DNA from: Escherichia coli | Lineage (GTDB): Bacteria; Pseudomonadota; Gammaproteobacteria; Enterobacterales; Enterobacteriaceae | Length of the DNA stretch: 64,000 nucleotides | Reading direction: 5' to 3' (one strand) | Assembly: GCF_001677475.2 (NCBI RefSeq) | Contig: NZ_CP012497.1 | In this document: positions 2,594-34,684 of the stretch, one piece after another | How the letters are laid out: every line of letters starts with the position of its first letter | Position numbering within the stretch: position 1 is the first letter of the stretch | Notes under the pieces: generated by a model | The model's input: only the letters and a program-made list of their open reading frames with translations | Databases searched by the model: none | Told to the model about the DNA's origin: nothing | Program-made: the position numbers and the translations under genes

Positions 2594-3962
2594 TAATAAT
2601 CCTCTTGCCAGTCAGCACCGGCATAGTTATCAAACCGTGAGTATTGGCCGTTAAAAGCCAATCTCACCGTGCCAATTGGGCCATTTCGTTGCTTACCGAT
2701 AATTACCTCGGCAATGCCCTTCATTTCGCTATCCGGGTGATAAACTTCGTCACGATACAGAAACATGATCAGGTCTGCGTCCTGCTCAATTGCTCCTGAT
2801 TCACGTAAATCTGAATTTACCGGTCGTTTGTCCGCACGCTGTTCAAGCGATCGATTAAGTTGTGACAATGCCACCACCGGTACTTGTAATTCCTTCGCCA
2901 AAGCCTTCAGTGAGCGAGAAATCTCGGCAATTTCCAGCGTTCGGTTATCTTGCAGCTCGGGGACGCGCATAAGTTGCAGGTAGTCGATCATAATCATGCT
3001 CAAACCACCATTTTCTTTATAAACACGACGAGCGCGGGAACGAAGCTCTGTAGGTGTCAGGGCGCTTGAGTCATCAATAAAAATATTCTGCTTGTCCAAC
3101 AGAATCCCCATTGCGCCAGAAACCCGCGCCCAATCCTCGTCGTTAAGTTGCCCTGTTCGAATACGAGTCTGATCAACGCGTGCAAGAGAAGCCAGTGAGC
3201 GCATCATCAGCTGGTGGCTCGGCATCTCAAGGCTAAAAACCAATACGGGCTTATCGTTACGGACTGCGGCATTTTCGACGAGATTCATCGCAAACGTAGT
3301 CTTCCCCATCGATGGGCGGGCGGCGACAATAATGAGATCGGACGCCTGAAGTCCTGCCGTCTTCTTATTGAGATCGGTAAATCCGGTATCAAGCCCGTTA
3401 CACCATCATGCGGTCGCTGAAACAACTCTTCTATGCGAGATACCGTTGCATCGAGAATGCTGGCGATATCTTTTGGACCACTACCGCTCTTTTGTCGTTT
3501 TTCAGCTATTTCAAAAACGCGGCGCTCGGCCATATCCAGCAATTCATTGCTGCCCCTGCCATCCTGCGCATATCCAGCTTCAGCTATTTCATTTGCGACG
3601 GAAATCATTTCACGAACAACCGCGCGTTCACGAACGATATCCGCATAAGCACAAATATTTGCCGCGCTGGGCGTGTTCTTTGACATCTCCGCAAGGTACG
3701 CAAAACCACCGGCGCGTTCTAATTTACCGTTCTGTTCAAGTGCTTCAGCAAGTGTTATCAAATCAATCGGTTTGCCATGACTTAATAACCTCTCCATCTC
3801 ACTGAAAATTTCACGATGAGCACTGGTATAAAAATCATCAGCAACTATACGATCTGCAACTTCATCCCAGCGGCAGTTATCAAGCATTAAGCCACCAAGT
3901 ACAGCTTGTTCTGCACTAAGGGAATTTGGCATGGATTCAAGAGGGGATGCAGACATTAGCAC
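2593..3962 (-). CDS. ban: DnaB-family replicative helicase (P1 Ban-like), frame broken by a 1-nt indel
   Basis: N-terminal ORF 3285-3962 matches the DnaB N-domain up to HDGVTG; C-terminal ORF 2593-3309 starts MGKTTFAMNLVENAA (Walker A) with full RecA-like core; an alternate frame reads DTGFTDLNKKTAGLQASDLIIVAARPS bridging them; break at about 3388-3392. Confidence 0.85.
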
Positions 3963-4241
3963 TCCACCCAGGCGTGCTGAATGTCAGATATAATCGGCAT
4001 ACTCAAATCACTCCTAACGATATGAGTCATCACCAGAAAATCAGGATTAATGCGCCGGACTCTTCCCGGCTGTCACACCGAATCGCCAGGATGGTGAGTC
4101 CCTGTATCCGCTATCCCTCCAACGGTGACTTGCACATTTCGGCTACCTGGTTTGTTGCCTGAGCTAGGGGAAAAGGTAACCCCTTTAACGTTACCAGACC
4201 GCTAACGACGCATGTGCCAGACGCCGTGTTACAACCAAATA

Positions 4242-4317
4242 TGGTGGCCCCTACCGGACTTGAACCGGTGACCGTGCGATTATGAGTCGCCAGCTCTAAC
4301 CACTGAGCTAAAGGGCC
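4242..4317 (-). tRNA. trnI: tRNA with CAU anticodon (Ile2/lysidine-type-like, or Met)
   Basis: Reverse complement folds as a cloverleaf GGCCCTT..GCTCAGTGGTTAGAGC..CTCATAA..GGTTCAAGTCCGG..AGGGGCCACCA; close to the E. coli ileX sequence as recalled; CCA encoded. Confidence 0.8.
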
Positions 4318-4320
4318 GGA

Positions 4321-4428
4321 TTACTGTTTCCTAAGTGCTTCAATGGCGCTAACAATACCGCCTACAACTATGGCAACAATGATAATGAGAACAATTGGAT
4401 ACTTATCTGCAAAATCCCAGAAGCTCAT
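4321..4428 (-). CDS. tiny hydrophobic membrane protein (35 aa)
   Basis: Hand-translated MSFWDFADKYPIVLIIIVAIVVGGIVSAIEALRKQ; start ATG overlaps the upstream stop (TGATG); not in the ORF track because under 60 aa. Confidence 0.35.
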   Translation of the reverse strand: MSFWDFADKYPIVLIIIVAIVVGGIVSAIEALRKQ

Positions 4429-4592
4429 CACTGATCCTTCGAGGCTGGTTTAAATATCGGCCATACCAATGTTACAGCTACTGCTACCAACGCCCCGTCG
4501 GATAAAACCGACAGGATTGTGCTGGTGAAATCCACCAGCACAGATAGCACGAGAAAAACCAAAGCCAGAATTAGACGTGCTTTTATAACCAT
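4428..4592 (-). CDS. small membrane protein (54 aa)
   Basis: Hand-translated MVIKARLILALVFLVLSVLVDFTSTILSVLSDGALVAVAVTLVWPIFKPASKDQ; start overlaps the TerB-like stop (TGATG), suggesting translational coupling. Confidence 0.4.
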   Translation of the reverse strand: MVIKARLILALVFLVLSVLVDFTSTILSVLSDGALVAVAVTLVWPIFKPASKDQ

Positions 4593-5017
4593 CAGATATA
4601 CTGTTCCAGTGGCAATTGAAGAGCCTGGGCAATTTTCTTCAATTGCTCCTGCTCTTCTGCCCCAATGCCATCCTGGTCAGCAATATCAATGCATAGGCAC
4701 AGAACATCTACCGCATCATTAGTTCCAGACACGTCAGCCAGTTCACGTAAAGCCTGGGCATTCGCTCGGCGCGGCGAGGCTTCATATTGAGCGCGAATAT
4801 TGGCGCTCATCTGGGCAATTTCACCGGAGAACGGCGCAAAGGCAGGAAGTGCTGCAATGGTTTTTTCCAATACTGCAATTTCTTTCGCATCGCAGGTGCC
4901 GTCAGAGTATGCAATGGAATATGCGCCCCAGACAGTCGCTTCCACCGCATCACGGTTTTCCATCTTCTTGACTCCGCCAGCCGCTTTGCGGAATTTCTTT
5001 TTGAGAATACCGAGCAT
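4592..5017 (-). CDS. TerB-like protein (P1 Tci-type)
   Basis: 141-aa ORF with TerB-domain character (AYSDGTCDAKEIAVLEKTIAALP, acidic C-terminus); position between the tRNAs and ban matches the P1 tci cluster. Confidence 0.55.
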   Translation of the reverse strand: MLGILKKKFRKAAGGVKKMENRDAVEATVWGAYSIAYSDGTCDAKEIAVLEKTIAALPAFAPFSGEIAQMSANIRAQYEASPRRANAQALRELADVSGTNDAVDVLCLCIDIADQDGIGAEEQEQLKKIAQALQLPLEQYI

Positions 5018-22890: not shown

Positions 22891-22929
22891 GCTTAAATTA
22901 TGCCGGTATAGATAGATTTTGAGCATGTT

Positions 22930-23226
22930 ATGGAAATTGATTTTTCATACTCTCCTGAGACGATAGAAAGAAGATTCGAAATAATTGGATGCATAACTAT
23001 TTCAGATGAGCATTATTGGATTCTCTATGATGCCAATACATGGTTATGTGCCTTAGCAGAATGTCAGGCATCGTTATGTGTAGGGGAGGGGGCTTTTCGA
23101 CATAAGGTGCTGGCTACACTTGAAGTGAACACGTTACGATATTGGTGTGTAGAAATACTTAGTGATAACAAAGAATTGCATTTATTATTGCTGAATAAGT
23201 GTGCTTCTCTGCGCAGAAAAGCATGA
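22930..23226 (+). CDS. hypothetical small protein (accessory island)
   Basis: 98-aa ORF in a low-GC island with no recognisable motif. Confidence 0.3.
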   Translation: MEIDFSYSPETIERRFEIIGCITISDEHYWILYDANTWLCALAECQASLCVGEGAFRHKVLATLEVNTLRYWCVEILSDNKELHLLLLNKCASLRRKA

Positions 23227-23391
23227 GAAAACCCAACCGCTCTCCCGTAATTATCAGAAGAATATGTGCGGAAAGTTATAGCTAGCTATTGAAAAGCTAA
23301 AGTAGATCGGTTAGATTTGCCTTACTCATCTACCATGTGTAGAAAGAGCGATCGAACCCGATACATAGTAATATGTGTCGGGTTCAGCTTT

Positions 23392-23856
23392 TTATGTCCC
23401 AAGTGCTCTTTTTCTGCTTTGTTTGAGTGTTCTGATTTTACTGTCATAGGTTACAACATAGGCTGTTTTGAGAAGCCAATAGTCTCTACGTGCGGATAGC
23501 ACAACAACGTAGTTTTCATACTCATTCCAGATTACCCACTCTTCAGTTGGTCCTCGTCTTTCAGACCAACATGATATATCGCAATGGTTATAATTCCTTA
23601 TCATATGCGCGATCCAGCGAATTCGTTTGCACCGTTCAAGATCGGGTATACGTTCTTCTTCTATTTTTCCCTCTGATACTAAATGCCAAAATCCGAACTC
23701 TTTCCCATCATATTCCGGTGAATAACGTAATCGAACAGGGAGACCCTTAAACGTTATATTAGAGATTAAAATATCTTCTCTGACAACATCATATACATCG
23801 TCTATATACTCTTGCCAACTTCCATTGAAGTACAATAAATCTGGCATTTGAAGCAT
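23392..23856 (-). CDS. hypothetical protein, downstream partner of the DUF3800-like gene (possible Rx5H HEPN-like motif)
   Basis: About 154 aa starting MLQMPDLLYF; ATG overlaps the upstream stop (TGATG); contains RIRWIAHMIRNYNH; low GC. Confidence 0.4.
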   Translation of the reverse strand: MLQMPDLLYFNGSWQEYIDDVYDVVREDILISNITFKGLPVRLRYSPEYDGKEFGFWHLVSEGKIEEERIPDLERCKRIRWIAHMIRNYNHCDISCWSERRGPTEEWVIWNEYENYVVVLSARRDYWLLKTAYVVTYDSKIRTLKQSRKRALGT

Positions 23857-24560
23857 CAGCGAGCCTCCCACACGAAAATATTAAATTTACTTTCTGTTGG
23901 AAGAGTGCTTTTTAGTAACTCCCTGTTTGTATGTGATTTTATCCTGTTTATGACTTGGATTTTTCCCGCGTTGCTATTCATTCCTCGATGAACGTAGCCT
24001 AACGCACCAATGAAAAGATCCGTTAGCTGCAATTGTTGCACTTCATGAGATCGTATATGTTGAATTCTGTTTATCGACTCATGATTGTAATCATAGCGAT
24101 CATTGTGAAGAACCCCTCTTAATTTCTCAATTTTTTCAATACCTAAAGTATCTTTTATATCTAGGTAGATATTGTATGTGTTGTTACTTTCTATTATGTT
24201 TTTTAAGACATAAAAAAACATCTTATAATAGAAAGTATTATGATCTTGATGGAATCGAGCATGGTCCAGTTGCTCTTTATCAGGAACAACAACACCTCTA
24301 AAGCGCAATGCTGGGTTGCTGAAGAAGTAATCTACGACATCTAAGTAAAATTCAACTTTGGACGCAGATACTTTAGTCCACTTGATTTCGAAATCAGGTT
24401 TTAGATTGTGTTTTAATTTTAATTCCTTGATGTCTCTAGCAATTTTTTTTGTGATAGTGCCTGGACACCAAAGCGCACCCAATACCATGACTTTATTATG
24501 ATCATTTAGTAGGTGACAGGATTCATCGCAGAATACATTAAATGTTCTTCGGTTCAACAT
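23856..24560 (-). CDS. DUF3800-like protein (candidate defence/accessory effector)
   Basis: 234-aa ORF with N-terminus NVFCDESCHL, similar to the xIDESG start recalled for DUF3800 proteins; low GC; sits where P1 rlfA/rlfB would be, downstream of repL. Confidence 0.45.
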   Translation of the reverse strand: MLNRRTFNVFCDESCHLLNDHNKVMVLGALWCPGTITKKIARDIKELKLKHNLKPDFEIKWTKVSASKVEFYLDVVDYFFSNPALRFRGVVVPDKEQLDHARFHQDHNTFYYKMFFYVLKNIIESNNTYNIYLDIKDTLGIEKIEKLRGVLHNDRYDYNHESINRIQHIRSHEVQQLQLTDLFIGALGYVHRGMNSNAGKIQVINRIKSHTNRELLKSTLPTESKFNIFVWEAR

Positions 24561-24710
24561 GTTAACTCCACTTATTGTTAGGTAGAATTGTCCGTTAGTT
24601 GTTTATTAATTGCAATAATGGGACGTCCAGTTTTGGCAACTGTGTCCTCTTACCAAGACGCCTATGAGTTTGCCTCATGGCAAACTAGAAGTGTTGAAAG
24701 TATGTATAGT

Positions 24711-27830: not shown

Positions 27831-28163
27831 AATGGCAGCCTCCTTTTGCTAATTTAAGGAGCTACCGCGTGAGGTTCCAATCTCAATGGCGGTAGCACTG
27901 ACTGGGTTGGAACTACCGGCGCAAAAGGGAACCGGCCTGCCTTTCGGCAGCCCAGCCAGCACTACCATTGATCTCGGAGCTATGTGCTACGTATGGCTGT
28001 GCGATGGCATGACACAAAAAAAGACGCTTTTGGCGTCTGTGTCGCCTTTTGCATTATCCGGGGTTCCAATCCCGGCATCCATTTTACTAAGATGCCTGTT
28101 TAGGATAAACCGAAAATGCATTAGCACGCAAGCAAGTTAATGTAGCATATGAAGCTAAAAAAA

Positions 28164-28180
28164 TAAAATAATTAGAGCAA
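28164..28180. promoter_or_regulatory. C1 operator-like site (P1 Op51-like) upstream of the icd-ant leader
   Basis: Reverse complement contains TTGCTCTAATTATT, partial consensus match in an AT-rich region. Confidence 0.4.
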
Positions 28181-28327
28181 CTTGTAACCATGTAAATTAT
28201 TTCCCTGGTAACTAAAATGTATGAGTTTAATTGATATGGGTCAAAGATTTTGACCATTGCATGGTGAAACTTTATGCTACAAAATGTTATTTTAAGGCGT
28301 TTTATCTGTGGCAGGAGATAGTTAATC

Positions 28328-28678
28328 ATGTCATCTGAACATGTTCGTAAAGGTGTAACAAATGCGAAATTCAATGAAGAGCAATCTAATATTCTCTTTA
28401 TTGAAATAGGAATTCTGTCAATACTGATAGGTTTAATGTCTAAATCATGGTGGGCCTTTGGCGGTTCTTTTCTTGGACTGATTTTTAGTTTAAGAATAAA
28501 ATTTCTGGCAATACCATTGATGATTGTATTTAGCTTAGTATGGGGAGCTATTGGCTATAGTATTGGTACTTTGTTTGAATCAACAGCAGCAAGTATTGTT
28601 TTGGGGGTAATTGCTTTCCTGAGTGGTTTGGGTACTCATTTTGCTGCCGTGCAATGGGCAAATGATATTGCAGAATAA
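28328..28678 (+). CDS. small polytopic membrane protein (about 4 TM helices)
   Basis: 116-aa ORF with four hydrophobic segments; low GC; first gene of a 3-gene + strand island. Confidence 0.5.
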   Translation: MSSEHVRKGVTNAKFNEEQSNILFIEIGILSILIGLMSKSWWAFGGSFLGLIFSLRIKFLAIPLMIVFSLVWGAIGYSIGTLFESTAASIVLGVIAFLSGLGTHFAAVQWANDIAE

Positions 28679-28700
28679 TTACAGATAAGAAGCGAAAAGA

Positions 28701-29177
28701 ATGAATATGAGATGGTTTTTATTATTTGTATCGTTAGTTTCAGCAGGAACATTTGCAAAAATTGATCCTCTACAATGGAATGTAATTGAAGAGAGAGGGG
28801 GGAGAGAATATACAATCCATAATCATAATGGTGATAAGATAAGTTTTTTATGTGATATGGGATTCATGTATGGTTCACCAGATAGTGCAGGTAGTTTAGG
28901 CTTGTTGCTAAGTTCGTCGAATAATAAAAAAGAGTATAATGCTGACAAGAATAAAATAGTATTAACTATAGATGGTGAGCAATATCCTTTTAGCAATCTT
29001 GGATCAATGGTTGGAGATTCTTGGTGGTATGCCTTTTGGCAAGATGCAGCAGATTCAAATGCTAATATGATTGATGCTTATGTTGATAATGAAAAAATTG
29101 CTACATTCCCTCTTTCTGGGCTAAGTAAGTTGTATCAACAAGCCAAAATGGATGGATGTATTAAACGAGGCAAATGA
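28701..29177 (+). CDS. secreted periplasmic protein
   Basis: 158-aa ORF with signal peptide MNMRWFLLFVSLVSAGTFA; Trp/Tyr-rich; low GC. Confidence 0.5.
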   Translation: MNMRWFLLFVSLVSAGTFAKIDPLQWNVIEERGGREYTIHNHNGDKISFLCDMGFMYGSPDSAGSLGLLLSSSNNKKEYNADKNKIVLTIDGEQYPFSNLGSMVGDSWWYAFWQDAADSNANMIDAYVDNEKIATFPLSGLSKLYQQAKMDGCIKRGK

Positions 29178-29218
29178 TCTTTCTGTGTTAAAGATTAACG
29201 CAATCAATAAAACATTGG

Positions 29219-30286
29219 TTGCGTAATATTCTATTATATAAATGGAATAATATGACAAAAATTACTAATTCTAATGAGTTGAAGTTACTGTATAAACAGT
29301 CAGTGCTCATTCCATCATACAAAGATCACGTAGCGATCTTGCAAAAACAATTAGGAATAGAAAAACATTCTTTTCAAAATATGACAAGATTGAATAGACA
29401 AGCTGTAATTAGTAACTCTCTTCGAAAACAATTGGCTAGTATGCCGAACTTGGCTGGAATAGGCAGCAAGTATCGTGAACATATCGCGATTTTACAGAAA
29501 CAGACTCAGGCTCTTTTCCCTCATGACGCAAATAGATATATTCAAATGCTAAGGAAACAGGCCGAAATAGCTATGCCATTACGAAAACAGCTTGAGGTGC
29601 TTAATAAGCAAGCTGGTTTAAATAACATGCAAGCGATACTTAAAGAATTACAACAAAGTGCAAGTTATAAAACAGATGTAAGCCAAGACATAAAGAAAGT
29701 ACTAGATCACTATGCTAGAACAAGAAATGCTTCATTACATCAAATAATAGAGCAGGGGATTTCATCTATTGCGCAGGCTTATGCTGAAGGTGCTACTGAA
29801 ACATCACACACCAAAAGTAATGTTCAAAATAAAGGATTAAATAAACCTAGCTCAAAGTTTGTTGATTCATTTAAAGAGCTTCCTTATCCACTGCAATGGT
29901 TACTAATGGTTATATTTTCTCAAGTTGTGTTTGGTGCTTTTATTGATTACGGAAAAGAGAAAACCTTGCTGGGAATACACAAGGCAGAATCATATTTTAT
30001 ATCTCTGTTTGAGGATAAACCAATATCAAAACAACAATTAATTAAAGAAAACAAAGAAATTAGTTGGGAAGATCTCAATGGTTTTCGTTTTATAACTGGT
30101 GAGAACGTAAGATTACACGTCAGTCCTTCTATAAATAGTGAGGTGATTGAATGCATTGGCAAAAATACTATAGTGGCTGTTTTAGATAAAAAAGATCGCC
30201 AATGGCTTTTCGTGCAGGTTAAATCAGGGGACGAGTTTATTACTGGATGGATTACACGAACATACACAAAGCCTCTTAAGGCTTGA
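29219..30286 (+). CDS. membrane-anchored coiled-coil protein with C-terminal SH3b-like domain
   Basis: 355-aa ORF with tandem helical repeats (HVAILQKQ, HIAILQKQ, LRKQ), one TM helix (LQWLLMVIFSQVVFGAFIDYG) and an SH3b-like C-terminus (GENVRLHVSPS..IVAVLDKKDRQWLFVQVKSGDEFITGWI); low GC. Confidence 0.5.
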   Translation: MRNILLYKWNNMTKITNSNELKLLYKQSVLIPSYKDHVAILQKQLGIEKHSFQNMTRLNRQAVISNSLRKQLASMPNLAGIGSKYREHIAILQKQTQALFPHDANRYIQMLRKQAEIAMPLRKQLEVLNKQAGLNNMQAILKELQQSASYKTDVSQDIKKVLDHYARTRNASLHQIIEQGISSIAQAYAEGATETSHTKSNVQNKGLNKPSSKFVDSFKELPYPLQWLLMVIFSQVVFGAFIDYGKEKTLLGIHKAESYFISLFEDKPISKQQLIKENKEISWEDLNGFRFITGENVRLHVSPSINSEVIECIGKNTIVAVLDKKDRQWLFVQVKSGDEFITGWITRTYTKPLKA

Positions 30287-30415
30287 ATTTTATCACCGTA
30301 TCTTGGGGCTGGGTGTTGATGACGATGTGCTACTTGAAGTACTTGGGTTTTTTAACGCAGCATCTGAAATGTGTAGACTGACCGGTAACAAATGACAACT
30401 CGTAGAATCGGGTAA

Positions 30416-30772
<357 letters not shown>

Positions 30773-30807
30773 GTTAGAAGCGCGCATATGGAAGTTATTC
30801 AAGATAA

Positions 30808-30837
30808 AACAGCGGCATTGGCCGCTGCTTTTTTATT
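30808..30837. terminator. bidirectional intrinsic terminator
   Basis: CAGCGGC-ATTG-GCCGCTG hairpin with A-run upstream and T-run downstream, between the + ORF end 30772 and the mom stop 30850. Confidence 0.6.
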
Positions 30838-30849
30838 CATTACGTGGGA

Positions 30850-31587
30850 TCACTTCGGGTATGGCTGAATCCTGAATAGCTTAGTATTTAGTCGCTTTTT
30901 TGCGCGCTTGTTCAGGAATCTGATGTAGCGATACTGATTAAATTTGTGTACCACCGCCCGCTCCTTATTAGCCCGCAAATACTCGCCTCGTTGTCCTCCA
31001 CGCTTAATCGCGTTCATCGTTATCTCGTGATACCACTCGCCGTCCAGCTCGTAGAACGTGCTTTCATGGCTACCAATAAAATCAAAATTAGATGCCTGAT
31101 ACACAACACCTGCACGTCCGCAGCGTTCGTCTGCAAAGGACTGAACCCACTCCACTGATGGATACAGTAACCTGATGGTTTTCAGTGCGTAGCTGATAGC
31201 CCGTGATTCAGAGTTGCGGGGCATGTCGTCGTGTAACCACATGCGGTTCAGTTCCATATAGCCCCGGTTATCCGTTTCCAGCACGACCCGACGCCCTGAG
31301 TTGGGATTAAGGGCGTATCCCCACTGGAGAACGCCAACCAGATCACGTCCGCTGAATACCCCCAGATGCAACCAGGAGTTATTCACAAAACGGCGGGAAT
31401 AGTGCTTTGTCTGAATGATTGTGCGGGCCAGCCAGCAGGATATGGTTTCAACGCGCAGTTCCCTTGAACCATAGCCGACAATACGGCCTTCATACTCAAT
31501 AACGCAGGGTTTTGTAAGGATGCGTGATTTCTTCTCTTTTCCCACAATACAGCTCCGTGGGATGCTCCCGGGCACTCGACATGACAA
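30850..31587 (-). CDS. mom: Mom-like DNA modification protein
   Basis: ORF directly downstream of and overlapping a Com homologue, the Mu com-mom arrangement; true start probably downstream of 31587. Confidence 0.7.
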
Positions 31588-31681
31588 TGTAACGTTTACA
31601 ACGAGGGCATTTGATTTCTATATGCTTAAAACTTCCTTTAAACAGCAATTTATTGCAGTTTTTACAACGAACAGCATCCAT
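31496..31681 (-). CDS. com: Com translational regulator (zinc finger)
   Basis: 61 aa [43 protein letters not shown], colinear with Mu Com as recalled (CxxC..CxxC). Confidence 0.85.
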
Positions 31682-31803: not shown

Positions 31804-32393
31804 TTAATAACCGGGCGTTAACGCTCTTATATCGCTCAGTGTGGACAGCAGGGAAAGTTGCTCTTTCATCTCGCGCTGGCGTTCGTGGATTTTAAAGCCC
31901 TCCGCCACCATGGCCACCATCATGGCATCGTTCAGCGCAATAAGTTTCTCCCTGGTCAGTACGACGTTGTTATTATCCGCATCAGTCCAGAAAAATCCCT
32001 CCGGAAGCAGTCCGGCCTGCGCTGCTGCAACCACGGGGCAAGGCGTGACTGCGAGGTTTTTCCGCCATCAAAACGACGGCCATCAAACGTGAAAATAAAC
32101 TCAACGTTTTCCTGACTGTCGCGCCATGCCTCAATTTCCCGCCTTTTGGCATCCTTTGCCGCTGCAATAAGTTCCGGCGTGACGGTGAACGGGGCGATTT
32201 CGCCCCATTTCCCGCTTTGCAGCTCCTGCCAGATGTGCTGGCCTGTCGGGGCCATATCATCCTGTATGGCAGTATACAGGGCGAACTCCGTTTCACCTTC
32301 AAATAACACCTCGCAGTCAACCGCACCATTTTCAAGATAATGTGCGTTTCTGATACCTTTCACCGCTCTGATTTTCATGCCTGATTTCCTCAT
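31804..32393 (-). CDS. tail fibre assembly protein, frame broken at a T/A run near 32057-32061
   Basis: ORFs 31956-32393 and 31804-32034 are N- and C-terminal parts of one Tfa-like protein; an alternate frame reads KNLAVTPCPVVAAAQAGLLPEGFFW across the junction. Confidence 0.6.
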
Positions 32394-34684
32394 TACTCAA
32401 TGCGTACAAAAAGACCGATAAAGCCACGCTGAGTACCATAATTGTTACCCAGGCCCGAAAGCGCCGTGTAACGACCGGGGAAGTTGTATTCACCGGCACC
32501 GCCAATCACAACCTGCGGTGAGGATGCGTATGTCCCTGTATCACTAACCTGTGCACTCATGGCCAGAGGACCAAGACGGGAACCCGGCACAGTATCACCG
32601 AGTCCCAGAGAAGCATTTTCACCAAAACTTTCTCCCTGATATACCGCCATAATCGGCACACCGACGGCCGGGTATTGGTAATATGAGAACGGACCATTAC
32701 CGGCGGTTGAGGACATCAGATATGCCAGGGAGTTGCCGTCATACACAATAAGGCTTGATGTTGCATTCCAGCTGTTACCACTGTAGCGATAACGCATACA
32801 ATGTATGCTGTGCTCATCCTCGTAATACTGGTTGTAGTACAGCAGCGTTTTGAATTTACGCGCTGAGTCTGAACCATCGTTATCAGAGGGTGACCACATC
32901 ACATCAATGATACCGTTAAATTTCGTGGTGCCCACCAGCAGCGTGGAGGAGTCCGCAATACTGACCGCATAACGCCCCGGGGTGACTGTCTGCAGCCATA
33001 TAACGAAATCAGCCTGTCCGTTAAATGACAGAGCTTCGGCGCTGGTGAATGCCTGTCCAAACCCATACATCCCGGACAGGGCCAGCCTGCCCGGTGTGCG
33101 GTCACGGATATCACTCTGGGGTTCCATCGTCGCAGCCGTGCTCAGCTCAAGCTCCGTGCGCATGGCTTCAGCCGTGTCATGCGCCAGCAATGCGCGGCCC
33201 TTCTCTGACAGCAGAGACAGTGAGGCATTCCCGTCTGTATTGAAGTACAGAAGATTATCTGCCCGTTGCGTCAGTGCGCTGATTGCCGTTAAGACGTCAT
33301 TAAGCGGTTGTTTGCCTGCCAGCGCGTTTGTGATTGTCGTCGCAAAGTTCGGGTCATTGCCCAGCGCCGCTGCCAGCTCGTTCAGGGTGTCCAGAACTTC
33401 CGGCGATGAGCCAACCAGCGCAGCAAGCAGTTTGCGCACAAACGCTGCGTTCGCTGCTTCCAGACCGGCGGCATCATCCGGTGGGGTTGGGGTGGTTGGG
33501 GTGCCGGTGAAGGCCGGGCTGTCCAGTGGCGCTTTTGTTTTCGTCTCGTCCATGACGGTTTTGACAGCCTTTGGCGTGGCAGCCAGTTCCTCGCTGTCGT
33601 TGTCCGTATCACTACACAGTTGCACCAGACCTTTTTCTGTCGTGGAGGCATTTGTTGCATTCAGGTCATCAACTATCTGCTGCGCCTCATCCCTGTACTG
33701 TTTCGCTTCCTGCGCATTGTCTGCACCTGCATCCTGGCTGGCTTTAGCCTGTCGGGCGTATTCGGCGGCGCTGTTTTCATGCCCGAGTGCAGCATTTGCT
33801 GCATTTTCCGCGCTGGTTGCAGCTGATGATGCGGCATTATGATAAAGGCGGGCGCGTTCGGCGGCATCGACTGATTCGTCCCGCGCTGTGCCTGATGACT
33901 GTGCGCTGTTTTCTGCCTCACCCGCAAAACGTTCCGCATCACTGCGGGCTGTTACCGTTGCCTGCACATCCTGTGCGGTCTGCTGTGCGCTTTGTGCTGC
34001 ATTATCAGCGTGATTTTCCGCATTCTGTTCGCTTTGTGCGGCAGCTTTGGCACTGGCTTTTGCCTCGCCGGTCAGCGTTGCAGCATCAGCAAGTTTATCG
34101 ACCGCTTTCCGGACTATCGTGTCGGCATCCTTAACGGCCTGCTCTGCGCGGGCTGCATTCTGACTGGTTTCAGAGGCAAGCTCTTCAGCTTTCTGCACAT
34201 TGCCTGCAATTTCTTCTGCATCCTGCCGTATTTCCCCGGCGAGGGTTTCTGTATCCTGGCGGGCCTGTTCAGCCGCGTCCGCGTGCTCTCCGGCTTCTTC
34301 CGCGCTTTGCTGCGCCTGTTGCGCCAGTTCTTCGAATTTCTTCAGGGCTTCCGGGCGCAGGTCAATATCGGTTGCACCCAGAAAATCATTCAGTGAACCG
34401 TCCTGTGAATCTTCATAAACACGAATGACACCGATTTCTGAAAGGCGCTGTTCGCTTTGTGTCAGGCGAACGCTGTACACACCCGGCTGAACGGAAAAGT
34501 CGTACTCCCCGCTCTGTGTGGTTACGTGGCTGAAAACACCTTTCAGGATCCCTGCACGGTTGTGCAGGGAGGTCAGAGTAATGGTTGCGCCGCCCAGCGC
34601 TTCTCCCGTGGGCGTTTTAATCACACCTTTAAGCTGCGGCATCGGGACGCTCCGGCCAGTTGATGGCATTAAAGGAGGCTTCAT
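32393..34684 (-). CDS. side tail fibre protein (lambda Stf-like architecture)
   Basis: 763 aa; N-terminus like the Stf N-domain (GVIRVYEDSQDGSLNDFL), Ala/Ser/Glu-rich repeats, conserved blocks LAATPKAVKTVMDETKTKAPLDSPAFTGTPT and LNELAAALGNDPNFATTITNALAGKQP. Confidence 0.8.
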   Translation of the reverse strand: MKPPLMPSTGRSVPMPQLKGVIKTPTGEALGGATITLTSLHNRAGILKGVFSHVTTQSGEYDFSVQPGVYSVRLTQSEQRLSEIGVIRVYEDSQDGSLNDFLGATDIDLRPEALKKFEELAQQAQQSAEEAGEHADAAEQARQDTETLAGEIRQDAEEIAGNVQKAEELASETSQNAARAEQAVKDADTIVRKAVDKLADAATLTGEAKASAKAAAQSEQNAENHADNAAQSAQQTAQDVQATVTARSDAERFAGEAENSAQSSGTARDESVDAAERARLYHNAASSAATSAENAANAALGHENSAAEYARQAKASQDAGADNAQEAKQYRDEAQQIVDDLNATNASTTEKGLVQLCSDTDNDSEELAATPKAVKTVMDETKTKAPLDSPAFTGTPTTPTPPDDAAGLEAANAAFVRKLLAALVGSSPEVLDTLNELAAALGNDPNFATTITNALAGKQPLNDVLTAISALTQRADNLLYFNTDGNASLSLLSEKGRALLAHDTAEAMRTELELSTAATMEPQSDIRDRTPGRLALSGMYGFGQAFTSAEALSFNGQADFVIWLQTVTPGRYAVSIADSSTLLVGTTKFNGIIDVMWSPSDNDGSDSARKFKTLLYYNQYYEDEHSIHCMRYRYSGNSWNATSSLIVYDGNSLAYLMSSTAGNGPFSYYQYPAVGVPIMAVYQGESFGENASLGLGDTVPGSRLGPLAMSAQVSDTGTYASSPQVVIGGAGEYNFPGRYTALSGLGNNYGTQRGFIGLFVRIE

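Follow-up and report, generated by a model that had tools for sequence, protein, structure and literature searches.

A low-GC cassette of predicted envelope genes in the sim slot of a P1-like phage-plasmid, with a possible role in superinfection exclusion

Three co-oriented open reading frames, genes A, B and C, form a low-GC cassette at positions 28328-30286 on the + strand of the window, a 64,000-nucleotide stretch of an Escherichia coli contig (NZ_CP012497.1). GC content is 0.32-0.38 across the cassette (0.343 as a whole) against about 0.47-0.52 in the flanks. The cassette occupies the very place that simA-simB-simC take in P1, between the Op51 operator of the immI/c4 leader and LPsit/pmgC, and it is transcribed away from C4 RNA, icd and ant. 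Our analysis thus bears out a preliminary description of the locus as three co-oriented genes of low GC content at the sim position, divergent from the icd-ant leader. The description erred in having the cluster directly abut a Mu-like insertion: LPsit and the first 95 codons of pmgC intervene, and the Mu-like element, with a mom/com about 89% identical to that of Mu, begins inside pmgC at 30724, 437 bp from the cassette. We rejected a link between this insertion and the cassette as incidental, because 25 other plasmids carry the cassette with an intact pmgC. In plasmid pP136-6 the cassette is 100% identical and pmgC is likewise intact.

Table 1. Genes and sequence features of the cassette and its edges (positions in the window)
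Feature	Position	Strand	Basis or remark
C4 RNA	27885-27972	-	Rfam, 76.7 bits
C1-repressor operator-like site (GTTGCTCTAATTATTTT)	28165..28181	-	3 mismatches to consensus ATTGCTCTAATAAATTT
Palindrome GGTCAAAGATTTTGACC	28239..28255	.	Read in the sequence; both TTGACC -35 boxes chosen by promoter scan
Sigma-70-like promoter candidate for the cassette, TTGACC-17-TATGCT	28250..28278	+	Consensus match only
Gene A, 116 aa, integral inner-membrane protein, 3-4 TM	28328..28678	+	Hydropathy
Gene B, 158 aa, predicted Sec-exported periplasmic protein, YfjT/YkfB family (PF27224)	28701..29177	+	
Hairpin between B and C, 11-bp stem, ACGCAATCAAT-AAAAC-ATTGGTTGCGT	29198..29224	+	T-tract poor
Gene C, 344 aa from ATG (or 355 aa from TTG 29219)	29252..30286	+	
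Weak terminator-like hairpin over the gene C stop codon	30269..30284	+	
P1 late promoter LPsit (-22 box AAATGACAA, -10 TAGAAT), right edge	30390..30408	+	
pmgC, first 95 codons, cut by the Mu-like insertion	30440-30723		

Regulatory sequences delimit the cassette on both sides. The window holds six C1-operator-like sites where 0.17 are expected. The site next to the cassette keeps the ATTAGAGCA core in alignment with P1; judged by its sequence and by the position of P1 Op51, it is the equivalent of P1 Op51/Oc4 and the left edge of the variable cassette. We infer that the palindrome beyond it comprises back-to-back -35 hexamers of divergent promoters, one driving the cassette on the + strand and the other the immI leader on the - strand. 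The candidate cassette promoter lies about 70 bp past the C1 operator without overlapping it, in a region whose promoter-like sites are no more numerous than the shuffled expectation. The ATG of gene A follows an AGGAG Shine-Dalgarno sequence at a distance of 9 nt. Plasmid NZ_CP033848.1 is arranged differently, with A-B-C fused downstream of a 'long simA' gene and homology starting at about 28282. The hairpin between B and C is possibly a weak attenuator. On the right, homology to P1, P7 and Ro157c2 resumes at LPsit. We propose that the cassette is a transcription unit separate from the late operon, positioned just past a C1-operator-like site.

Gene A encodes a glycine-zipper-rich membrane protein. 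Its length and membrane character agree with the preliminary description, but the four helices proposed there become three to four by hydropathy. The product falls in PHROG 15014, a family of unknown function, and has no match in Pfam, NCBIfam or PADLOC. Homologues are 58-72% identical, and one of them lies in a Salmonella P1-like element, where a YfjT-like gene follows it. Others stand alone in Vibrio and metagenome contigs.

Gene B belongs to a family of small exported proteins with members in E. coli K-12. The N-terminal signal peptide previously noted in its product is predicted here too and is conserved across the whole family alignment. Among the 49 aligned sequences W26, G33 and C153 are invariant, and C51, W109 and F136 are conserved in at least 90%; gene B matches the family pattern of about 145-165 aa, a signal peptide and Trp/Gly/Cys...Cys. 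The product is 26% identical to K-12 YfjT over the same length (BLASTP E=4e-7), PGAP names it a 'YfjT/YkfB family phage-associated protein', and precomputed annotation places PF27224 on it and its relatives. The copy of Pfam that we searched, which does not contain PF27224, returned no match for A or B. A confident AF2 model shows a beta-rich fold with one long helix, and Cys51 and Cys153 are probably disulfide-bonded. No close solved relative emerged, and a sequence search of solved structures gave no significant match. The fold remotely resembles IalB (PF06776; PDB 3dtd), at 9% identity with borderline scores and without a link at the sequence level.

The K-12 members of the family, YfjT in CP4-57 and YkfB in CP4-6, sit in cryptic prophage islands and adjoin an inner-membrane lipoprotein. 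Small membrane or lipoprotein genes lie upstream of YfjT-like genes in K-12 (ypjK-yfjS-yfjT) and in two other loci (L023 and L025). Gene B shares with YfjT/YkfB its length, signal peptide, Cys pair and position downstream of such a gene in a mobile element; its sequence, however, is divergent, and YpjK and YfjS are unrelated to A and C. Neither YpjK/YfjS, nor the 116-aa protein of L023, nor the small proteins of L025 showed homology to A; the parallel is by analogy only. Strictly lytic jumbo phages have members of the family too, and there all neighbours are hypothetical proteins. We found no functional study in literature searches on yfjT, ykfB, variants of the sim slot or exclusion proteins of the SH3 type.

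Gene C joins a variable helical region to a conserved SH3 tail. The 355 aa first given for it hold only for the TTG start; PGAP places the start at ATG 29252 in 26 near-identical plasmids, yielding 344 aa, and neither start has a good Shine-Dalgarno sequence. The remaining features stood: in the 344-aa form an N-terminal helical region of about 210 aa with [LM]xKQ repeats precedes one TM helix (213-231) and a fixed tail of 113 aa. The repeats HVAILQKQ and HIAILQKQ are present, together with four further [LM]xKQ copies. In the 355-aa form, residues 296-349 match Pfam SH3_3 (PF08239; E=2.3e-5), and precomputed annotation carries PF08239 on nearly all homologues. A weak match links the SH3 part to an endolysin amidase PHROG (E=0.008), the whole protein falls in PHROG 7086, and the single NCBIfam match, TIGR04533, is below threshold (E=0.015, 14.5 bits against a cutoff of 65). 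Searches of solved structures by sequence gave nothing significant for gene C or its family profile, and the AF2 model is poor (pLDDT 45). Because the protein lacks a signal peptide and has a long N-terminal region, we predict that the repeats are cytoplasmic and the SH3 tail periplasmic; the positive-inside count was uninformative. The SH3b domain is predicted to bind peptidoglycan, as in the endolysins and NlpC/P60 hydrolases to which the SH3_3 and amidase PHROG matches liken it. Unlike those enzymes, gene C has no catalytic domain, its SH3 would be tethered to the inner membrane by the TM helix, and it carries a large predicted cytoplasmic repeat region. Family members are 61-99% identical in the SH3 part, against 10-84% in an N-terminal region that ranges from 212 to 353 aa.

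A hypervariable N-terminal region opposite a conserved end is a pattern of sensor domains, and it raises the prospect of abortive infection or defence, with the C repeats sensing a phage component and A depolarising the membrane. Lambda RexB has four TM helices and is encoded next to an immunity region, and A resembles it in size and placement. A Vibrio homologue of A also adjoins an AAA_15/AAA_21 ATPase, though that contig is just 3.4 kb long and 309 bp separate the two genes. We regard such a system as very unlikely: the cassette matches nothing in PADLOC and carries neither an enzymatic nor an NTPase domain, many slot variants retain B and C but lack A, and the variation in C consists of tandem-repeat expansion in low-complexity helices, more like a spacer or coiled coil.

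All three genes are real, functional and under purifying selection, since dN/dS is 0.12 for A, 0.21 for B and 0.39-0.46 for C. Low GC content favours long chance reading frames, and the start signals of gene C are weak, so the genes might be decaying or untranscribed remnants, or ORFs that arose by chance in AT-rich DNA; we give that reading almost no credence. Selection and conservation effectively refute it: every dN/dS value is below 0.5, homologues keep their length and motifs across genera, the B fold is confident, and 36 complete genomes carry an intact cassette. Nor are these ordinary P1 structural or lysis genes, the PHROG families matched being all of unknown function. Hydropathy, the signal peptide and the SH3_3 match predict that all three products are envelope proteins, as the preliminary description had proposed.

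The cassette is carried by plasmids and is not a known P1 gene set. Of 5,426 complete E. coli genomes, 36 have it in full, in every case on a plasmid, whereas a search of 50,697 phage records at the DNA level found it in none. P1, P7 and D6 match only the flanks at the DNA level. The cassette proteins showed no homology to SimA, SimB or SimC by BLASTP (all E>0.7), and the YfjT-family profile aligned to SimC, SimB and long SimA with hhalign probabilities of at most 2%. The sim region is already published as a low-GC variable hot-spot (PMC9603915; PMC6906374); its variability is thus known, and the A-B-C cassette itself has not been described before.

Comparison of slot contents revealed that its genes recombine independently. 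Four slot types contain gene A (A+B+C; A+B+DUF4760; longSimA+A+B+C; longSimA+A+YfjT) and two do not (longSimA+YfjT+SH3; longSimA+YfjT). Each of these six non-P1 types examined includes a YfjT-like gene, and in PLSDB such a gene occurs in 181 plasmids against 141 for SimC. The 52-aa simA of P1 is a stub of the longer gene, long SimA. In the Salmonella pairing of A with a YfjT-like gene, A is 72% and B 27% identical; in a pairing of YfjT-like and SH3 genes with overlapping reading frames, B is 28% and C 69% identical. These identities indicate that both pairings recur across deep divergence. Every slot occupant (SimA/long SimA, SimB, SimC, YfjT-like, A, SH3 protein and DUF4760) is predicted to be exported or membrane-embedded, and we read the slot as a combinatorial mosaic of otherwise non-homologous, putative envelope cassettes. 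The three genes do co-occur, as the preliminary description had it, but 'three-gene module' is too strong a term because they recombine independently and homologues of A and C also stand alone elsewhere. Since those single homologues lie in unrelated contexts, A, B and C need not act together.

Cargo of this kind may serve the host rather than the phage. The genes could be lysogenic-conversion factors, or 'morons', that act in the envelope to aid stress tolerance, cell-wall homeostasis or host interaction independently of phage. The low-GC cassette lies in a hot-spot that also receives unrelated cargo; the remote fold likeness of B is to IalB, a family named for host-cell invasion; YfjT and YkfB reside in K-12 prophage islands beside an inner-membrane lipoprotein; and homologues of C follow umuDC in Yersinia or stand alone in other elements of about 90 kb. 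We nevertheless consider a role independent of phage unlikely.

A C1-operator-like site directly precedes the slot in all variants, including Cronobacter phage JK004, which has a like site upstream of its slot genes although it lacks the immI region: its slot pair is flanked by bplB and the bplB terminator on one side and by the late pmgC promoter on the other, and no divergent immI operon is present. Retention of the operator there could mean that the slot genes are repressed in lysogens. They might then be produced soon after infection or induction and act in the envelope of the producing cell, for example in lysis timing (antiholin-like), protection from lysis from without, or masking of receptors or debris, and be off in the lysogen. 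The JK004 operator, with no immI operon to serve, favours such a lytic function, as does the presence of the YfjT-like family in strictly lytic jumbo phages; the P1 Sim phenotype, moreover, was reportedly seen with multicopy clones and not in ordinary lysogens. The jumbo-phage members accord with exclusion too, as exclusion genes such as T4 imm/sp occur in lytic phages as well. Against a lytic function stand the roughly 70 bp between operator and candidate promoter, and P1 encodes its holin, antiholin and endolysin in dedicated genes at other loci. P1 can also grow without simABC, and knocking simABC down leaves its plating unchanged (PMC10695390). We judge a lytic-cycle function quite unlikely. 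It partly overlaps with exclusion, insofar as exclusion could operate during lytic growth.

P1 Sim is the sole characterised occupant of the slot, and the only one for which an exclusion phenotype has been shown. According to two accounts, Sim is exported and processed, brings about superinfection exclusion and is thought to act by preventing the injection of DNA (PMC8546580; PMC2409434). The cassette resembles simABC in its identical slot, orientation and boundaries (Op51 to LPsit), its low GC content (0.343 against 0.336 for simABC) and its nature as a small operon of dispensable accessory cargo for predicted exported envelope proteins. Signal-peptide export is predicted for B as for SimA, SimB and SimC; the Sim proteins, however, all have signal peptides, whereas in the cassette one protein is multi-TM and another is a bitopic SH3 protein. 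Secondary infection is also blocked by small phage membrane or periplasmic proteins in T4 (Imm/Sp) and lambda (RexAB). Their likeness to the cassette is by analogy only: PADLOC gave no match, and no solved exclusion protein appeared among the fold matches listed. PADLOC-DB v2 contained no family matching A, B or C at E<=1, and none matching the alternative slot proteins either.

The cassette is a horizontally exchanged alternative allele of the accessory sim slot in P1-like phage-plasmids, and we favour, with a probability of roughly 0.4, the reading that it confers Sim-like superinfection exclusion at the envelope. Position and localisation alone make an exclusion or envelope role the best guess. 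Like P1 Sim, A, B and C would work at the level of the inner membrane, the periplasm or the peptidoglycan, so that a superinfecting phage could adsorb but its DNA would not reach the cytoplasm. At the core would be the YfjT-like protein, with A and C as optional partners anchored in the membrane or cell wall; C would hold a strongly conserved periplasmic SH3b on peptidoglycan and extend fast-evolving helical repeats into the cytoplasm. Several observations speak against exclusion: the large predicted cytoplasmic repeat domain of gene C is atypical of known exclusion proteins, the cassette lacks both a PADLOC match and sequence or profile similarity to Sim, A and C have homologues that stand singly, and the conserved C1 operator could mean repression in lysogens.

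A broader proposal, possible if somewhat doubtful, extends exclusion to the whole YfjT/YkfB family. These periplasmic proteins would form the core of a widespread, hitherto unrecognised class of phage-entry blockers with interchangeable envelope partners (A, long SimA, C, YpjK/YfjS), for example by obstructing the tail tube or the Sit transglycosylase at the interface of peptidoglycan and inner membrane. They would be the majority, natural occupant of the sim slot, and P1 simBC a secondary replacement that left the simA stub.

P1 serves as a reference phage, and resistance genes are commonly found on P1-like phage-plasmids. The factors that govern phage entry into their hosts bear on phage therapy and on gene spread. 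The textbook sim operon is one allele of its slot, slightly rarer in plasmids than YfjT-like cassettes. Without a phage phenotype, the cassette would be plain hot-spot cargo. An exclusion phenotype, if found, would provide a function for the YfjT/YkfB family, including two E. coli K-12 y-genes, and a peptidoglycan-anchored exclusion component could come to light.

On sequence comparison, the cassette at 28328-30286 is an alternative allele at a known accessory hot-spot, not homologous to that of P1. The replicon is a P1-like (IncY-type) phage-plasmid, and comparison with the annotated P1 genome places the cassette exactly at the simA-simB-simC site, where the preliminary description had located it. 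Two comparative papers count the sim region as one of the hot-spots of P1-like elements that combine low GC with high variability (PMC9603915; PMC6906374), and simABC is dispensable in P1 (PMC10695390). GC content, described earlier as below the backbone, is 0.343 for the whole cassette and 0.32-0.38 across the cluster versus ~0.47-0.52 on both flanks. P1, P7 and D6 match the flanks only, in keeping with the view that this is no known P1 gene set. At the DNA level the cassette occurs in 0 of 50,697 phage records, and tblastn of C against phages gave no match. BLASTP of A, B and C against SimA, SimB and SimC was negative, as were profile alignments of the B family to SimB, SimC and long SimA. 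P1 simABC and the cassette share a slot and a predicted export or membrane destination for their products, but not sequence homology.

The feature is real and correctly placed. ORF listing bears out three co-oriented + strand genes, and pairwise dN/dS (A, 0.12; B, 0.21; C, 0.39-0.46) marks them as genes under selection. The entire cassette recurs at ≥97.8% identity in 26 PLSDB plasmids. Among 5,426 complete E. coli genomes it is found in 36, plasmid-borne in every case and chromosomal in none. Neither candidate start of C has a strong ribosome-binding site. GC is low (0.34-0.41) at 22900-24700 too, also a known variable slot; it holds P1-type rlfA (DUF3800) and rlfB, and in CP099272, the closest plasmid, hokD and one further gene take their place.

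Features of the window and sim-slot genes of comparison loci (L-numbers; rows naming a locus use its coordinates)
Feature	Location	Strand	Remarks
rlfB	23392-23871	-	P1-type
rlfA	23856-24560	-	P1-type, DUF3800
C4 antisense RNA	27885-27972	-	Rfam; followed by icd, ant; immI leader runs opposite to cassette
isrK-like RNA	28017-28095	-	Rfam 58.9 bits, above gathering score; immediately upstream of C4 RNA
C1-operator-like site	28165-28181		P1 Op51 equivalent; left edge, cassette begins just beyond
Sigma-70-like promoter candidate	28250-28278		TTGACC-17-TATGCT, consensus match only; 5' of gene A
Gene A	28328-28678	+	116 aa (ORF listing)
Gene B	28701-29177	+	158 aa (ORF listing)
Gene C	29219-30286	+	355 aa from TTG (ORF listing); PGAP start in near-identical plasmids ATG 29252, 344 aa
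Late promoter LPsit	30390-30408		right edge, just upstream of pmgC; abrupt return of homology to P1, P7 and Ro157c2
mom	30850-31587	-	Mu-like prophage, from 30724 onward
com	31496-31681	-	Mu-like prophage
Tail-fibre genes	31804-34684	-	Mu-like prophage
simA, L001 (P1)	4560-4718
Long SimA, L003	4302-4949
Long SimA, L004	4401-4970
Long SimA, L011	3928-4419
Long SimA, L016 (NZ_CP033848)	844-1482
Long SimA, L017 (Salmonella)	3234-3902

The slot retains a C1-operator-like sequence even where its surroundings change. In Cronobacter phage JK004, a long SimA and YfjT-like pair lies between bplB (with terminator) and an LPsit-like pmgC promoter; the immI region is absent, yet a C1-operator-like sequence still stands directly upstream of the pair, so the operator may regulate the slot genes themselves. 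Such regulation would fit expression in the lysogenic state as well as expression early in the lytic cycle, and a C1-controlled lytic-cycle role is a less probable alternative for the cassette. Gene A is preceded by an AGGAG Shine-Dalgarno sequence. A perfect palindrome at 28239-28255 (GGTCAAA-GAT-TTTGACC) supplies the -35 hexamers, set back to back, of two candidate promoters that point away from each other, and could be a regulator binding site. The immI leader type differs from that of P1 and shows short stretches of similarity to D6 and JL22; in related plasmids with the same leader, the PGAP annotation places an ORF for a 39-aa 'ash family protein' immediately before icd.

All three products look envelope-directed. 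The proposed four-helix protein A is a membrane protein, though hydropathy gives three to four TM segments. NCBIfam and Pfam gave it no family. Homologues of 58-72% identity exist, some solitary in unrelated settings (in Vibrio beside an AAA ATPase, on a chromosome, beside an integrase); in a diverged Salmonella P1-like element, one (72% identical) lies directly 5' of a YfjT-like gene whose product is 27% identical to B. In the Vibrio metschnikovii contig (L005, 950-3060), a 482-aa AAA_15/AAA_21 ATPase gene is followed, after 309 bp, by a 62% identical homologue of A, a layout that recalls small defence systems on a contig too short to judge.

Protein B was rightly read as having a signal peptide (MNMRWFLLFVSLVSAGTFA/K), which is kept in all full-length family members aligned. 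B belongs to PF27224 'YfjT', a recent Pfam family, is named 'YfjT/YkfB family phage-associated protein' in newer PGAP records, and shares 26% identity with YfjT of K-12 (E=4e-7). An exhaustive profile search returned just 56 cluster representatives, most of 145-165 aa. W26, G33 and C153 never vary in the alignment, and C51, W109 and F136 are almost as strictly kept; the conserved C51/C153 suggest a periplasmic disulfide. The confident AlphaFold model (pLDDT 88.7, pTM 0.80) is beta-rich with one long helix. Foldseek found no PDB match; in AFDB50 the model's neighbours lack characterisation, and proteins annotated as IalB appear at E 2e-4 to 2e-3. We found no functional literature on yfjT or ykfB.

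The features ascribed to C also held: hydropathy supports a single TM helix, Pfam SH3_3 matches the C-terminus (E=2.3e-5), and HVAILQKQ/HIAILQKQ are among six [LM]xKQ copies. Its homologues are almost confined to ~90-100 kb contigs of Escherichia, Citrobacter, Salmonella and Yersinia, and the family is sharply bipartite. The post-TM tail is 113 aa in most members, with SH3 domains 61-99% identical, whereas the pre-TM region (212-353 aa, 10-84% identical) bears different tandem repeats in different members, making the SH3 end the constrained part. Because C has a long N-terminal region without a signal peptide, an N-in/C-out topology with periplasmic SH3 is likely; the positive-inside count is uninformative here, and the AF2 model is poor. 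By PHROG match, the SH3 part bears a weak resemblance to the domains with which endolysin amidases bind the wall. Solitary SH3-protein homologues occur on Salmonella and Citrobacter contigs of ~84-98 kb (L008, 5001-6350; L009, 5001-6446), in a different large element, which has a gene for an Eco57I/SNF2-helicase-like protein of 2,262 aa as well; in the Citrobacter homologue, the N-terminal region contains a 19-aa unit (GSTIADSVSLSERITKLAQ) repeated in tandem about eight times.

Across P1-like elements the slot is a combinatorial mosaic. P1 has simA (52 aa)-simB-simC; Ro157c2 and JK004, long SimA (189-215 aa, secreted) and a YfjT-like gene; L011 and L014, these two plus an SH3 protein; Salmonella L017, long SimA, A and YfjT-like; NZ_CP033848, long SimA, A, B and C; and the window, with its 26 plasmids, A, B and C. 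In NZ_CP124510.1 (L013), whose B-allele class occurs in 28 plasmids, A and B are joined by an oppositely oriented 297-aa DUF4760 membrane protein (3529-4422, - strand; two N-terminal TM segments; PHROG 21275, function unknown; no PADLOC match) that replaces the SH3 gene. The YfjT-like gene is the sole constant of all non-P1 types, and PLSDB counts are 181 plasmids for YfjT-like, 141 for SimC and 63 for the SH3 protein. For all slot proteins encountered, the prediction is either export or insertion into the membrane. Long SimA, a 163-222-aa secreted protein, is the first slot gene in many P1-like elements. P1 SimA matches only its N-terminus (92-94% identity to the first 40-50 residues), so P1 simA is a truncated stub, left when simB-simC replaced the rest, which implies that simB-simC of laboratory P1 is a secondary replacement. 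We found no literature describing the cassette, its YfjT-like core or simA as a stub. Comparable pairings are met again outside P1-like elements: a long-SimA-like domain in a DUF4431 protein lies 13 bp upstream of an A homologue, and small non-homologous membrane or lipoprotein genes precede YfjT-like genes (K-12 ypjK-yfjS-yfjT; comparison loci L023/L025).

The cassette does not abut the Mu-like insertion, as had been stated; 437 bp separate them, and the Mu-like element lies inside pmgC. Intact in P1 and the best-matching plasmids (188 aa), pmgC here diverges after codon 95; identity to CP099272 ends at 30723, and the Mu-like end begins at 30724, with three ATTCAAGATA-like repeats at 30740-30830 and mom/com ~89% identical to Mu, SfMu and D108. 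A Mu-like transposable prophage thus transposed into pmgC; its other end would lie late in the window or past it. The cassette is unrelated to it, because plasmids with intact pmgC carry the same cassette. Since pmgC is essential in P1 (PMC10695390), the P1-like element has probably lost its function as a phage.

The envelope character originally proposed is confirmed; the accompanying exclusion role is the most likely function by inference. PADLOC matched none of A, B and C, NCBIfam gave one sub-threshold match (to C), and all three fall in PHROGs of unknown function. Sim is described as acting in superinfection exclusion, possibly by preventing the injection of DNA (PMC8546580; PMC2409434). 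Slot position, the envelope targeting that alleles share despite their lack of homology, and partner pairings that recur, rather than homology or experiment, tentatively favor Sim-like exclusion at the inner membrane, periplasm or peptidoglycan (probability about 0.4). Abortive infection and a moron serving host fitness are less probable alternatives. Through the cassette, both the YfjT/YkfB family and the variety that the P1 sim slot shows in nature become accessible to direct tests.
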